The notes below the pieces were generated by a model. The model was given only the letters and a program-made list of their open reading frames with translations, searched no databases and was not told where the DNA came from. 64,000 nt of DNA from a phage, in the sequence record PZ543597.1; one strand, written 5' to 3'. Position 1 is the first letter of the stretch. Each line of letters opens with the position of its first letter. The position numbers and the translations under genes are program-made. Shown one piece after another: positions 30,759-35,667 of this stretch.

Positions 30759-31121
30759 ATGAAAGCATATCAAATTCTTGAAGGCACGCATAAAGGTACT
30801 ATTTATTTTGAAGATGGTATTCAAGCACGAATTATTGTTTCTAAAACCTTTAAAGAGGACTCTTTTGTAGACCCAGAAATTTTCTACGGTTTGCATGCCC
30901 GTGAAATTGAAATTGAACCACAGCCTACAGTTAAAATTGAAGGTGGTCAACACCTGAACGTTAACGTTCTGCGTCGTGAAACTCTGGAAGATGCAGTTAA
31001 GCATCCGGAAAAATATCCGCAGCTGACCATCCGTGTATCCGGTTATGCAGTTCGCTTTAACTCTCTGACTCCGGAACAGCAGCGCGACGTTATCGCTCGT
31101 ACCTTTACTGAGAGCTTGTAA
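30759..31121 (+). CDS. grcA: autonomous glycyl-radical cofactor (GrcA/YfiD-like)
   Basis: C-terminal 60 aa ([60 protein letters not shown]) match E. coli GrcA as recalled, including the RVSGY radical glycine; corresponds to the T4 Y06I family. Confidence 0.9.
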
Positions 31122-31342
31122 TGGCAAAGATAATTATTGAAGGTTCTAAAGATGTGTTAAATGCTTTCGCAGAATGGTTTAGTAATTCAGGCGAACAGCA
31201 ATTTAATGAAGCGTGGAATATGGGTGATATTAGTGGAATTTATCCTACGACAGAAATTTCTGTTCAGGGATATGGCATTCATGAACCTATTCGTTTAGTT
31301 GAATATGATTTGGGAACGGGCGAGGAAGTCAAATATGATTGA
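31121..31342 (+). CDS. hypothetical protein
   Basis: 73-aa ORF, TAATG-coupled to the GrcA-like gene. Confidence 0.5.
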   Translation: MAKIIIEGSKDVLNAFAEWFSNSGEQQFNEAWNMGDISGIYPTTEISVQGYGIHEPIRLVEYDLGTGEEVKYD

Positions 31343-31601
31343 AGATATTAAAGGTTATAAGCCGCACACTGAAGAGAAAATCGATAAAGTGAATGCTATC
31401 AAAGACGCTGAAGTTCGTTTAGGACTTATCTTTGATGCTTTATATGATGAATTCTGGGAAGCACTAGATAATTGTGAAGACTGTGAATTCGCGAAGAATT
31501 ATGCTGAAAGCCTCGATCAGTTAACTATTGCTAAAACGAAACTCAAAGAATCCAGTATGTGGGCTTGTCGTGCAGTGTTCAAACCAGAGGAAAAATACTA
31601 A
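31335..31601 (+). CDS. small acidic protein at the vs.4 position (candidate Acb2-type cyclic-dinucleotide sponge)
   Basis: 88 aa from [24 protein letters not shown]...; second gene upstream of regB. The Acb2 = T4 Vs.4 link is from literature memory, not a search. Confidence 0.5.
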
Positions 31602-31879
31602 TGACTCAATTAAGCGCAGGGTTTGGTTATGAGTATTATACTGCCCCTCGTCGTGTATCTGTTGCTCCTAAGAAAATTCAAAGTCTTGATGATTTCCAGG
31701 AAGTAGTCCGTAACGCTTTCCAGGACTATGCACGCTATCTTAAAGAAGATTCACAGGACTGTCTCGAAGAAGATGAAATTGCTTACTATACGCAGCGTCT
31801 TGAACAGCTCAAAAATCTACATGAGGTTCGTGCCGAAGTTTCAAAGTCTATGAATAAATTGATTAGATTTAAAGAATAA
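31601..31879 (+). CDS. hypothetical protein (vs.3 position)
   Basis: 92 aa from an ATG overlapping the upstream stop. Confidence 0.5.
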
Positions 31880-31882
31880 CTG

Positions 31883-31911
31883 TTTACTTTTCCTCTTGAC
31901 TGTGGTATAAT
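31883..31911 (+). promoter_or_regulatory. T4-type early promoter upstream of regB
   Basis: -35 TTTACT, 17-bp spacer, TG-extended -10 TATAAT. Confidence 0.7.
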
Positions 31912-31938
31912 TTTTCTATCAGTTAAGAGGAGAATAAC

Positions 31939-32400
31939 ATGACTATCAACACAGAAGTTTTTATCCGTCGAAATAAGCTTCGTCGTCACTTTGAGTCGGA
32001 GTTTCGTCAAATTAACAATGAGATTCGTGAGGCATCAAAAGCAGCAGGGGTCTCATCGTTTCATCTAAAATATTCTCAGCATCTTCTTGATCGTGCAATT
32101 CAACGGGAGATTGATGAGACATATGTTTTTGAATTATTCCATAAAATAAAAGACCATGTTTTAGAAGTTAATGAATTCCTGAGTATGCCTCCGCGTCCTG
32201 ACATTGACGAGGATTTTATTGATGGGGTTGAATATCGTCCTGGGCGTTTAGAAATCACCGATGGAAATCTTTGGCTTGGATTTACAGTTTGTAAACCTAA
32301 TGCGAAGTTCAAAGACCCGTCACTTCAGTGCAGGATGGCAATTATCAATAGTCGTCGTTTACCAGGAAAGGCTTCTAAAGCAGTAATTAAAACTCAATGA
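31939..32400 (+). CDS. regB: RegB site-specific endoribonuclease
   Basis: 153-aa ORF MTINTEVFIRRNKLRRHFESEFRQINNEIREASK...; matches T4 RegB as recalled. Confidence 0.95.
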   Translation: MTINTEVFIRRNKLRRHFESEFRQINNEIREASKAAGVSSFHLKYSQHLLDRAIQREIDETYVFELFHKIKDHVLEVNEFLSMPPRPDIDEDFIDGVEYRPGRLEITDGNLWLGFTVCKPNAKFKDPSLQCRMAIINSRRLPGKASKAVIKTQ

Positions 32401-32407
32401 GGTAAGC

Positions 32408-32953
32408 ATGAGAAAAGCACTACTCGCTGGTCTATTGGCCATTTCAATGATGGCACATAGCTCCGAGCATACTTTCAGTAATGTCCAACTCGATAACATG
32501 CGTTACGCGTATCAATTCGGGGAACAATTTTCTAAGGATGGAAAATATAAAACACACAAAAACATCCATAAGAGCGGATTGGGTCATATAATGGCTGCTA
32601 TTTTGTGGCAAGAAAGCTCTGCCGGAGTTAATTTAAAATCTAAACCAAAGCATCATGCCTATGGAATGTTCCAAAATTATTTGCCTACTATGCGAGCGAG
32701 AGTCAAGGAACTTGGTTATAATATGACCGATGCTGAAATAAAAAGAATGTTGAATAAACGGTCCAATTCAGCTTCCTGGGCGTACATTGAACTTTCTTAT
32801 TGGTTAAATATACATAAGGGTGATATAAGAAAAGCAATATCATCTTATAATTCGGGATGGAATGTTAAAGCAGGTTCTAAATATGCTTCTGAAGTCCTAG
32901 AAAAGGCTAATTACCTTAAAAATAATAAACTTTTGGAAATAGTAAATGACTAA
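32408..32953 (+). CDS. secreted/periplasmic hypothetical protein (vs.1 position)
   Basis: 181-aa ORF with an N-terminal signal peptide (MRKALLAGLLAISMMAHS). Confidence 0.55.
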   Translation: MRKALLAGLLAISMMAHSSEHTFSNVQLDNMRYAYQFGEQFSKDGKYKTHKNIHKSGLGHIMAAILWQESSAGVNLKSKPKHHAYGMFQNYLPTMRARVKELGYNMTDAEIKRMLNKRSNSASWAYIELSYWLNIHKGDIRKAISSYNSGWNVKAGSKYASEVLEKANYLKNNKLLEIVND

Positions 32954-33287
32954 AATTTTGGTTTTATGTATAGGATTAATTTCATTTTCTGTGTTAGCAG
33001 ATACATCATATACTGAAATTAGAGAGTATGTAAACCGTACTGCAGCGGATTATTGCGGGAAAAATAAAGCATGCCAAGCTGAATTTGCGCAGAAATTAAT
33101 ATATGCATATAAAGACGGAGAAAGAGATAAATCAAGCAGATACAAAAACGATACATTATTAAAACGATATGCTAAAAAGTGGAATACCTTAGAATGTTCA
33201 GTTGCGGAGGAGAAAGATAAAGCCGCTTGTCATTCAATGGTTGACCGTTTGGTAGATTCTTATAATCGAGGATTGAGTACTAGATGA
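32946..33287 (+). CDS. signal-peptide protein at the vs position
   Basis: 113-aa ORF with signal peptide MTKILVLCIGLISFSVLA and four Cys; the vs assignment is positional only. Confidence 0.45.
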   Translation: MTKILVLCIGLISFSVLADTSYTEIREYVNRTAADYCGKNKACQAEFAQKLIYAYKDGERDKSSRYKNDTLLKRYAKKWNTLECSVAEEKDKAACHSMVDRLVDSYNRGLSTR

Positions 33288-33751
33288 TTGTAAAATATAT
33301 CAAGGGCGATATTGTCGCCCTTTTCGCTGAAGGTAAAAATATTGCGCATGGATGCAATTGTTTTCATACTATGGGTTCAGGCGTAGCGGGTCAATTAACC
33401 AAAGCTTTCCCTAAAATTTTGGAAGCTGATAAATTACAGACTGAATGGGGTGATGTAACTAAACTCGGTTCTTACTCAGTCTATGAAAAATACTTTAGGA
33501 CTCATAAAGCGTATTGCTTCAACCTTTATACTCAATTTCAACCAGGGCCAAATTTTGAGTATTCCGCTTTAATGAATTGTATGTTAGAATTAAATGAGTT
33601 TGGTGAAAATAAACTGATTAAACCTACAATCTATATGCCTAGGATTGGTGCAGGCATAGGTAAAGGGAACTGGGATATTATTGAGGGGATTTTAGATACA
33701 TATTCCTCTAAATTAGAAATTGTGATTGTTGATTGGGAACCGTTATTATGA
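33284..33751 (+). CDS. macro-domain-like protein (putative ADP-ribose-binding/processing)
   Basis: 155 aa; N-terminal GDI...IAHGCNCFHTMGSGVAGQL and later IYMPRIGAGIGKGNW resemble the macro-domain phosphate-binding loops (TARG1/OARD1-like). Motif-level inference only. Confidence 0.5.
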   Translation: MIVKYIKGDIVALFAEGKNIAHGCNCFHTMGSGVAGQLTKAFPKILEADKLQTEWGDVTKLGSYSVYEKYFRTHKAYCFNLYTQFQPGPNFEYSALMNCMLELNEFGENKLIKPTIYMPRIGAGIGKGNWDIIEGILDTYSSKLEIVIVDWEPLL

Positions 33752-33960
33752 ATATACATTATCCACATCCATATGACCCAAAGAATAAGGTAGTAATTAT
33801 TCGTCAATGGGAACGCATTTGCCGTACTAAATGTCCAATTAATAGTCCGCATGATGTAGATAAAGACTACATTGGAACATTCGTTGAATATACCTTTATT
33901 GATAAGAAAGGTCGTAAACAGCATGTAGAAGAATACTGCTTAAAGGTTACATGGTTATGA
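33748..33960 (+). CDS. hypothetical protein
   Basis: 70 aa from an ATG overlapping the upstream stop (ATGA). Confidence 0.45.
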   Translation: MNIHYPHPYDPKNKVVIIRQWERICRTKCPINSPHDVDKDYIGTFVEYTFIDKKGRKQHVEEYCLKVTWL

Positions 33961-34163
33961 GCCAAACTAGTATTCTTAAAAATGCCCATTGTGAAAAGTG
34001 TAAATGGCCAGTTGTTTTTGCTTTATGCAACGATGAAATGGCTTGTGATTTCGATTATTGGTGCTATTGTTCTAATAAAGGATGCATCAATCATAAAGGT
34101 GAAGGATTTTATTCGGGATTTTATCCTTATCCAGATTTCGTTAAAGAAGGTAAACCGAAATGA
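33951..34163 (+). CDS. Cys-rich small protein (putative zinc-binding)
   Basis: 70 aa with CEKCK...CNDEMACDFDYWCYCSNKGC. Confidence 0.5.
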   Translation: MVMSQTSILKNAHCEKCKWPVVFALCNDEMACDFDYWCYCSNKGCINHKGEGFYSGFYPYPDFVKEGKPK

Positions 34164-34333
34164 ATAGTTTTGAGTTACAGTATGAAGTGTTACGTGAGCT
34201 TGATAATTTAATTGAACTCGCTGTCAATAAAGGTTTTGCCATTGGAATCGGTCAAAAAGATACTGGTCATTTAACTATGGAAATATTTAAGCAAAAGCGA
34301 ATTATTATAAAACTCCTGGAAATTAATATATGA
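34160..34333 (+). CDS. hypothetical small protein
   Basis: 57-aa ORF (below the track cutoff) with ATGA coupling at both ends. Confidence 0.4.
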   Translation: MNSFELQYEVLRELDNLIELAVNKGFAIGIGQKDTGHLTMEIFKQKRIIIKLLEINI

Positions 34334-34515
34334 GTCTGAGTAAAGAACAAAAAGATAAATTGTTTGAGCTTATCCATGAACTTCTAGATGAGCATACAGA
34401 AGCAAACACCTTTTATGATGAATACGGCCCGCTATCTCCCGAACAGCAAGAAGAATTTGCTGATCGGTTTAATAAGAAAGAAAACGAATTAATAGCTTAT
34501 GTGAATATGCTTTAA
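34330..34515 (+). CDS. hypothetical small acidic protein
   Basis: 61-aa ORF coupled to its neighbours. Confidence 0.45.
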   Translation: MSLSKEQKDKLFELIHELLDEHTEANTFYDEYGPLSPEQQEEFADRFNKKENELIAYVNML

Positions 34516-34524
34516 GAAGGTGAT

Positions 34525-35106
34525 ATGGCGAGTTTAATTTTTACTTACGCAGCAATGAATGCTGGAAAATCTGCTTCTCTTTTGACTGCTGCACATAATT
34601 ATAAAGAACGCGGAATGGGTGTATTAGTTCTTAAGCCTGCTATTGATACTCGCGATTCTGTCTGTGAAGTCGTTTCTCGCATTGGAATTAAGCAGGAAGC
34701 GAATATTATTACGGATGATATGGATATTTTTGAGTTCTATAAATGGGCTGAAGCACAAAAAGATATTCATTGTGTATTTGTAGATGAAGCTCAGTTTTTA
34801 AAAACTGAACAGGTGCATCAATTAAGTCGAATTGTTGATACATATAATGTTCCTGTTATGGCTTATGGGCTAAGGACTGATTTCGCTGGAAAATTATTTG
34901 AAGGTTCTAAAGAACTTTTGGCGATTGCAGATAAACTTATTGAACTAAAGGCAGTTTGTCATTGTGGTAAAAAAGCTATTATGACAGCTCGATTAATGGA
35001 AGATGGAACACCAGTTAAAGAAGGTAATCAAATCTGTATTGGTGATGAAATTTATGTTTCTTTGTGTAGAAAACATTGGAACGAATTAACTAAAAAGCTC
35101 GGTTAG
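34525..35106 (+). CDS. tk: thymidine kinase
   Basis: 193-aa ORF with P-loop AMNAGKSASLL and zinc ribbon CHCGKK...C..HW; matches T4 Tk as recalled. Confidence 0.95.
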   Translation: MASLIFTYAAMNAGKSASLLTAAHNYKERGMGVLVLKPAIDTRDSVCEVVSRIGIKQEANIITDDMDIFEFYKWAEAQKDIHCVFVDEAQFLKTEQVHQLSRIVDTYNVPVMAYGLRTDFAGKLFEGSKELLAIADKLIELKAVCHCGKKAIMTARLMEDGTPVKEGNQICIGDEIYVSLCRKHWNELTKKLG

Positions 35107-35148
35107 TGCAAAAGTTATAAATAGGTTTATCTAACTAAAGGGGTATAT

Positions 35149-35361
35149 ATGCTACAATTAACTGAAAAGCAACTTCGCAATCTTACTGTTCTTCAATTAG
35201 ATGAAATTCGTAGGGAAGTTGGAAATATCATTTCAGCTTTGCGTCGAGAAGTATCACTCAACCAATCTCCGGCAGACTATACTAGATTGCGAAATTTTGA
35301 AAAATACCTTGATAAAGTTAAGGCCGTGCATCGGCATAAAGTAAATACAGGACAAAAATGA
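35149..35361 (+). CDS. hypothetical protein (rI.1 position)
   Basis: 70-aa ORF with RBS aaagggg. Confidence 0.5.
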
Positions 35362-35373
35362 TAGGAGGCCTTT

Positions 35374-35667
35374 ATGGCCTTAAAAGCAACGGCACTATTT
35401 GCCATGCTAGGATTAGCGTTTGCTTTATCTCCACCAATTGAAGCGAATGTCGATCCTCATTTTGATAAATTTATGGAATCTGGTATTAGACACGTTTATA
35501 TGCTTTTTGAAAATAAAAGCGTAGAATCATCTGAACAGTTCTATAGTTTTATGCGAACGACTTATAAAAATGACCCGTGCTCTTCCGATTTTGAATGTAT
35601 AGAGCGAGGCGCGGAGATGGCACAATCATACGCTAGAATTATGAACATTAAATTGGAGACTGAATGA
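35374..35667 (+). CDS. rI: lysis-inhibition regulator rI
   Basis: 97-aa ORF with signal-anchor MALKATALFAMLGLAFALSP and ...CSSDFECIERGAEMAQSYARIMN; matches T4 RI as recalled. Confidence 0.9.
   Translation: MALKATALFAMLGLAFALSPPIEANVDPHFDKFMESGIRHVYMLFENKSVESSEQFYSFMRTTYKNDPCSSDFECIERGAEMAQSYARIMNIKLETE

Follow-up and report, generated by a model that had tools for sequence, protein, structure and literature searches.

What does the 155-aa protein encoded just downstream of vs contribute to a T4-type phage, and is it the macrodomain protein that its glycine-rich motifs suggest? The gene lies in the window, by which we mean the whole 64,000-nt stretch of phage DNA analysed here (sequence record PZ543597.1). 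A preliminary description, drawn from the letters of the DNA, had read the product as a macro domain that could reverse or sense ADP-ribosylation or degrade ADP-ribose-derived immune signals.

The tk.4 gene and its surroundings

The protein is identical over 155/155 aa to T4 Tk.4 (NP_049723.1), which RefSeq labels "phosphatase; Tk.4; contains A1pp phosphatase motif"; other phage records name the homologue "macro domain protein" or "Poa1p-like family protein", and PHROG 335 carries the label 'phosphatase'. The DNA around the gene has 99.4–99.8% identity to several Tequatrovirus genomes, and the gene order is that of the T4 minus strand (vs.6/grcA, regB, vs.1, vs, tk.4, tk.3 ... tk, rI.1, rI, rI.-1), with vs upstream and tk.3 downstream of tk.4 as in the T4 reference. 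The gene is tk.4 (adfM) of a T4-type phage (Tequatrovirus). This identity, which the preliminary description had not recognised, was already known, tk.4 having carried an A1pp/macro annotation for many years, and the biological role is likewise already known at the level of a preprint (2025). Whereas the Tk.4 protein matches the T4 reference exactly, vs (32946–33287) encodes 113 aa here and 115 aa in T4, and the tk.3-to-tk block also differs; the window derives from a close T4 relative and not from the T4 reference itself. Two features define the locus at the DNA level:

33284..33751, + strand: tk.4 (adfM), with ATG at 33284 and TGA at 33749–33751, encoding a 155-aa stand-alone macrodomain protein whose fold covers approximately residues 2–151

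31883..31911, + strand: candidate sigma-70-like promoter, TTTACT-17-TATAAT with an extended −10 TG, just upstream of regB

The 155-aa ORF contains the motifs first picked out by eye, namely G8-D9-I10, I20-AHGCNCFHTMGSGVAGQL-38 and I116-YMPRIGAGIGKGNW-130, and the string of small genes upstream of tk is indeed tightly packed, with overlaps between successive ORFs. ATGA overlaps join vs to tk.4 (33284–33287) and tk.4 to tk.3 (33748–33751), tk.3 overlaps the next gene by 10 nt, and ATGA overlaps recur at 34160 and 34330, three more small genes lying between tk.3 and tk. The tk gene starts at 34525, after 9 intergenic nt that contain a Shine-Dalgarno sequence. Because of the tk.4/tk.3 ATGA overlap, and because annotated relatives begin at ATG, the start of tk.3 is ATG 33748 and not TTG 33733 of the mechanical ORF list. 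In a consensus scan of the region, which overall gave no enrichment over shuffles, the site at 31883–31911 was the best + strand match (10/12), and the scan found no terminator-like site on the + strand between it and tk. From its position and letters, this site would likely be the early promoter of the regB-vs.1-vs-tk.4...tk string, and the promoter/terminator layout may be read as consistent with early polycistronic expression.

A search of 31500–35500 for Rfam families gave no match, and the one antisense ORF of notable size, 97 aa at 33631–33924, had no family support. A perfect 8-bp stem hairpin (AAGGGCGA-TATTG-TCGCCCTT; 33302–33322), 18 nt inside the tk.4 ORF, was called terminator-like on the minus strand. 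We rejected it as a regulatory element: although its stem is stable locally, the 91-nt region is no more strongly folded than shuffled sequence (z −1.0), and the hairpin is probably incidental. The tk.4 transcript of T2 is contacted by the host sRNA ArcZ, with the protein level unaffected (2026 preprint).

The block at 33951–34515, between tk.3 and tk, departs from the T4 reference. Two of its products, a 70-aa Phage_zn_bind protein (PF23895; 33951–34163) and a 57-aa protein (phrog_3452; 34160–34333), have no tblastn match in T4 56–64 kb, a 61-aa DUF7438 protein (34330–34515) has only 52% identity to T4 Tk.2, and T4 tk.1 is absent from the block, which looks like a small mosaic replacement within an otherwise 97–100% identical region. 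On the other side of tk.4, the product of vs.6 (30759–31121) is an autonomous glycyl-radical cofactor of 120 aa, homologous to GrcA/YfiD, with the glycyl-radical motif RVSGYAV and 99% identity to T4 Vs.6. The adjoining 73-aa ORF (31121–31342) matches T4 in two tblastn pieces (59 aa at 92%; 18 aa at 89%) around vs.5, which is 58 aa long in T4; the boundaries and lengths of the vs.5/vs.4 genes in the window differ from those of the reference. The 181-aa product of vs.1 (32408–32953) begins with a signal-like stretch and weakly matches the SLT lytic-transglycosylase domain (Pfam 23.4 bits, cut-off 21.3). For vs itself, a recent preprint reports stronger depletion in minimal medium than for any other T4 gene (bioRxiv 10.1101/2025.11.20.689424).

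Homologues of Tk.4 were found by tblastn in 2,751 of 50,697 phage records, or ~5% of sequenced phage genomes. Judged from organism names and genome sizes, the carriers are T4-like, rV5-like, ~87-kb, ~93-kb and ~150-kb myoviruses, and the hosts of these myoviruses include Escherichia, Klebsiella, Salmonella, Pseudomonas, Vibrio, Acinetobacter and Aeromonas. Two further homologues lie on metagenome-assembled genome (MAG) contigs labelled 'Bacilli bacterium' (GCA_051648945.1, 1927–2397) and 'Culicoidibacterales' (GCA_051660865.1, 6001–6480). Both contigs bear Rnl1, a Dda-like helicase, PNKP, dCMP deaminase and the T4 spanin; no darT lies beside the homologue on either, the neighbours being T4-like phage genes. 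We therefore rejected these sequences as bacterial homologues: the contigs are T4-like phage binned into MAGs, and so are uninformative about a bacterial origin.

Macrodomain fold and relation to known macrodomains

The macro-domain call held in both profile searches and structure prediction. Pfam Macro (PF01661) matches residues 22–132 with 27.7 bits (curated cut-off 22, E 2.9e-6). Among solved macrodomains, phmmer gave Bacteroides BT1257 as the best match (E 1.3e-9), with yeast Poa1p, Streptomyces SCO6735, the macrodomains of DarG and human TARG1 as other relatives of solved structure, and hmmsearch of a 70-sequence family profile against PDB sequences yielded E values of 7e-17 to 5e-11 for solved macrodomains. 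The AlphaFold2 model built on the 70-sequence alignment (pLDDT 95.3, pTM 0.91) is predicted to adopt the three-layer alpha/beta/alpha fold with a central mixed sheet, and Foldseek matched it to TARG1, Poa1p, BT1257 and DarG with probability 1.0. The resemblance is far above chance. The nearest neighbours in both structure and sequence are TARG1, DarG, SCO6735/BT1257 and Poa1p, not macrodomains of the MacroD, viral or PARG types, and Tk.4 is a single-domain macrodomain of the ALC1/TARG1-like class. A reader with only the sequence in hand was able to recognise a genuine macrodomain here.

Although Tk.4 shares its fold with DarG (PDB 5M3E, 5M3I; NF048014), it is not a DarG equivalog. DarG has a C-terminal DarT-binding domain, which Tk.4 lacks (155 aa versus ~330 aa for the DarG models), and carries Lys80 where Tk.4 has Gln84. 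The NCBIfam DarG model NF048014, whose cut-off is 250 bits, gives Tk.4 a score of 30.3 bits, matching profile positions 2–146 of 338, and PADLOC DarG models match it through their macro part only. Moreover, no darT lies next to tk.4, whose neighbours are vs and tk.3.

Among the closest relatives are SCO6735 (PDB 5E3B) and BT1257 (PDB 2FG1/2AFC). Like Tk.4, these are ALC1-like, have Gln at the Lys position, lack the TARG1-type Asp, stand alone and are encoded away from DarT. However, Tk.4 has only 26–29% identity to them, has its own invariant D49 and H-G-C-N-C motif, and is a phage counter-defence protein. In the family-profile alignment it also lacks their mobile loop after the Gln, which is 5–6 residues longer. 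Because its loop after Q84 is short and of TARG1 length, Tk.4 is no simple copy of SCO6735. TARG1/OARD1 (PDB 4J5S) aligns without gaps over catalytic strand and loop alike and conserves both phosphate loops, and the loop that runs from position 84 as far as helix residue Tyr93 has 9 residues in each protein; by contrast, the TARG1 catalytic dyad K84/D125 is replaced by Q84/G126 in Tk.4.

A second phage protein bears the name AdfM. PhiKZ gp104 was so named in Cell Reports in 2026, and it strips ADP-ribose from DarT2-modified DNA in vitro, an activity lowered by N23A (PMC13309987). Like Tk.4, gp104 is a stand-alone phage macrodomain that counters DarTG2. Unlike Tk.4, it is clearly DarG-like, with Lys78 and a phmmer E of 9e-25 to Mtb DarG, and it is imported into the phage nucleus, a structure that T4 does without. 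Its match to the Tk.4 family is distant (hhalign E 1.4e-9, 19% identity). Because of this distance and the DarG likeness of gp104, the two AdfM proteins appear to be separate recruitments from different subclades, one of chimallivirus/jumbo-phage type and one of T4 type.

The predicted ADP-ribose pocket

Three segments of Tk.4 make up the predicted pocket:

33347..33397, + strand: loop 1, predicted ADP-ribose pocket, H22-G-C-N25-C-F-H-T-M-G-S-G33-V-A35-G-Q-L38

33521..33535, + strand: N80-L-Y82-T83-Q84, with Q84 at the catalytic-Lys position of DarG, TARG1 and PhiKZ AdfM

33638..33673, + strand: loop 2, predicted diphosphate-binding, P119-R-I121-G122-A-G124-I-G126-K-G-N-W130

The two motifs proposed at the outset as phosphate-binding loops align with the ADP-ribose/phosphate loops of TARG1, CRMGAGIA and MPRIGCGLDRLQW. 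Within them, the glycine-rich elements G31-x-G33 and P119-x-I-G-x-G124 are conserved and, in these alignments, lie against the TARG1 loops; loop 2 is aligned to TARG1 'PRIGCGLDRLQW', placing G126 opposite the catalytic D125. In the family alignment, G23, N25, G33, A35, D49, Y82, Q84, P119, I121, G122 and G124 are invariant (70/70), and T83 is present in 69 of the 70 members. N25 aligns with N22 of Taq DarG and N23 of PhiKZ AdfM by MAFFT. Q84 falls opposite TARG1 K84 in hhalign and in hmmsearch against PDB sequences, opposite DarG K80 and PhiKZ AdfM K78 in MAFFT, and opposite the Gln of BT1257 'MIGQ' in the family-profile search. This Gln–Gln pairing agrees with the strand and helix boundaries of the AlphaFold2 model. 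Together, the alignments suggest that Q84 and N25 are located in the pocket.

One alignment placed Q84 elsewhere: single-sequence phmmer set it opposite BT1257 D88. We rejected this pairing as a loop-length artefact, as the 70-sequence profile pairs Gln with Gln through a 6-residue insertion. A PDB query with Tk.4 residues 60–155 gave an alignment to the C-terminal loop of 5E3B only. Two further features set the family apart. D49 (33428–33430), on helix 43–52, is without a counterpart in DarG, TARG1 and PhiKZ AdfM, and the near-invariant H-G-C-N-C motif (H22, C24, C26; 33347–33361) is absent from the same three proteins.

This motif is shared in part with Poa1p, H-x-C-N-C being common to Poa1p (HSCNC) and Tk.4 (HGCNC), and PDB mutant entries of Poa1p, H23A and S30A, fall at aligned positions. 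Together with the strong structural match to Poa1p, the A1pp note in T4 RefSeq and the label of PHROG 335, this would fit a metabolite enzyme, either a Poa1p-like ADP-ribose-1''-phosphate phosphatase, the likeness behind the RefSeq 'phosphatase' label, or an O-acetyl-ADP-ribose deacetylase, that clears small ADP-ribose derivatives. We consider such a role improbable. Sequence and profile scores rank BT1257 and TARG1 above Poa1p, and weak in vitro A1pp phosphatase activity is common in macrodomains and need not be their role. Moreover, Appr-1''-p arises from Tpt1/KptA-type tRNA splicing, chemistry that the T4 Rnl1/PNK repair pathway does without. The one phenotype found for tk.4, described in the preprint discussed below, is specific to DarTG2, a host defence that modifies DNA, and a metabolite role would leave it unexplained.

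Tk.4 as a putative thymidine-ADP-ribose hydrolase

Genetic data connect tk.4 to this defence. DarTG2 is a host toxin-antitoxin system that ADP-ribosylates thymidine in DNA, and in the HIDEN-SEQ study of November 2025 a T4 transposon library was screened on a DarTG2 host and tk.4 was the sole significant T4 gene required there (bioRxiv 10.1101/2025.11.20.689424). A clean tk.4 knockout sensitised T4 to DarTG2 and, as far as the accessible text goes, T4 can do without the gene on plain E. coli K-12, its depletion being confined to DarTG2 hosts. The gene was renamed adfM, for anti-DarT factor Macrodomain; its authors suggested that the product removes ADP-ribose from DNA enzymatically and pointed to a structural likeness to M. 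tuberculosis DarG. Published support on the function of T4 Tk.4 comes from this one preprint and consists of genetics and a structural overlay. Work from the Laub lab had shown that DarTG2 resistance persists in T4 when AdfA and AdfN are both missing, so that a further T-even strategy was to be expected (PMC11257639 / PMC11825919).

The biochemistry of SCO6735 offers a precedent for a Gln-containing macrodomain. SCO6735 has 54% identity to BT1257, and its Gln85 sits, in structural terms, where DarG has K80 and TARG1 has K84; Q85A and Q85E are inactive (PMC9411070). It removes dT-ADPr made by DarT more rapidly than either DarG or TARG1, leaves dG-ADPr untouched and rescues E. coli from DarT, and its authors propose a water-mediated, lysine-independent mechanism and tie the high activity on DNA to an extended "mobile loop", ~5 residues longer than in TARG1 and DarG (PMC9411070). 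T-ADPr is also removed by TARG1 (PMC8501950). The mechanistic addition of our analysis is that the Tk.4 family has Gln at the catalytic-Lys position in 70/70 members, which is the SCO6735 arrangement. Since T4 tk.4/adfM encodes Gln84 and not Lys, Q84 and N25, rather than a lysine, are the residues of mechanistic interest.

Based on these findings, we think that Tk.4 probably removes thymidine-linked ADP-ribose from phage ssDNA by an SCO6735-type, lysine-independent reaction and so counters DarTG2. In the proposed sequence of events, the DarT2 toxin, released from DarTG2, would attach ADP-ribose to thymidine in single-stranded phage DNA, and early in infection Tk.4 would strip it off again, restoring replication. 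The adenosine-diphosphate part of the adduct would be held by the glycine-rich loops at residues 22–38 and 119–130, with N25 and Q84 positioning the distal ribose and the thymine. Cleavage may be water-mediated, as proposed for Streptomyces SCO6735; we expect it to be lysine-independent because the catalytic Lys of DarG and TARG1 is replaced by an invariant Gln. We infer that Tk.4 is itself the hydrolase, that it would use Q84 and that it would act on DNA and not by binding DarT2. A point against this reading is that the DNA of T4 contains glucosyl-hydroxymethylcytosine, in which DarT2 would have to recognise its TNTC-type motif.

Binding has nonetheless to be weighed, in that the macrodomains of SCO6735, DarG and TARG1 inhibit DarT in vitro even when catalytically dead, the strongest inhibitor being SCO6735 (PMC9411070). 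Tk.4 might thus protect mainly by binding and inhibiting DarT2, or else by sponging or degrading ADP-ribose immune signals such as the gcADPR of Thoeris, as the preliminary description had in part envisaged. We give little credence to this. Tk.4 is without the C-terminal DarT-binding domain of DarG, and the strict conservation of N25, Q84 and both loops favours catalysis; for the immune signals, no Thoeris phenotype of tk.4 has been reported in the literature. To our knowledge, the anti-Thoeris proteins Tad1 and Tad2 have folds unrelated to the macrodomain. By analogy with dead SCO6735, DarT2 binding could still add to the protection afforded by removal of the thymidine mark.

The leading idea of the preliminary description had been that the protein reverses or senses ADP-ribosylation in a phage type with its own ADP-ribosyltransferases. 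On this reading, Tk.4 would regulate the phage's own programme, removing ADP-ribose or the ModB-attached RNA chains that Alt, ModA and ModB put on host proteins. T4-type phages do encode three ADP-ribosyltransferases (PMC9503650), SCO6735 and TARG1 also take ADP-ribose off Glu/Asp-modified proteins (PMC9411070), and the place of tk.4 in an early/middle transcription unit might hint in the same direction. Even so, we judge this reading very improbable. The marks left by Alt, ModA and ModB are arginine N-glycosides, which are substrates of the ARH type. We know of no macrodomain that cleaves Arg-ADPr, which ARH-type enzymes handle. The dispensability of tk.4 on plain E. coli K-12, as described in the accessible text of the preprint, likewise speaks against a part in the phage's own programme. 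The suggestion that a phage macro domain reverses ADP-ribosylation was therefore right in kind, while the Alt/Mod and immune-signal contexts fell away, as the genetics points to DarTG2.

How far does removal of the thymidine mark extend to other nucleic-acid modifications? For one mark at least, it is unlikely that Tk.4 erases nucleic-acid ADP-ribosylation in general, because CmdTAC, which ADP-ribosylates mRNA, is still a strong defence against wild-type T4 (PMC11618068). More tentatively, and in our view doubtfully, the T4-type AdfM could represent a third catalytic flavour, with the SCO6735-like Gln, a loop of TARG1 length and the family invariants D49 and H22/C24/C26, recruited independently of the jumbo-phage AdfM and perhaps with a wider range of action, for example on uracil-ADPr RNA, a substrate of TARG1-like enzymes, or through direct DarT2 inhibition. 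If true, a wider substrate range would account for the presence of the gene in ~5% of phage genomes and in many myovirus groups. The shared AdfM name hides two independently recruited enzyme types, one with Gln84 (BT1257/TARG1-like) and one with Lys78 (DarG-like). With Tk.4/AdfM directed against thymidine modification, the T-even phages possess layered anti-DarT tools, alongside AdfA and the NADAR enzyme AdfN, which acts against guanine ADP-ribosylation.
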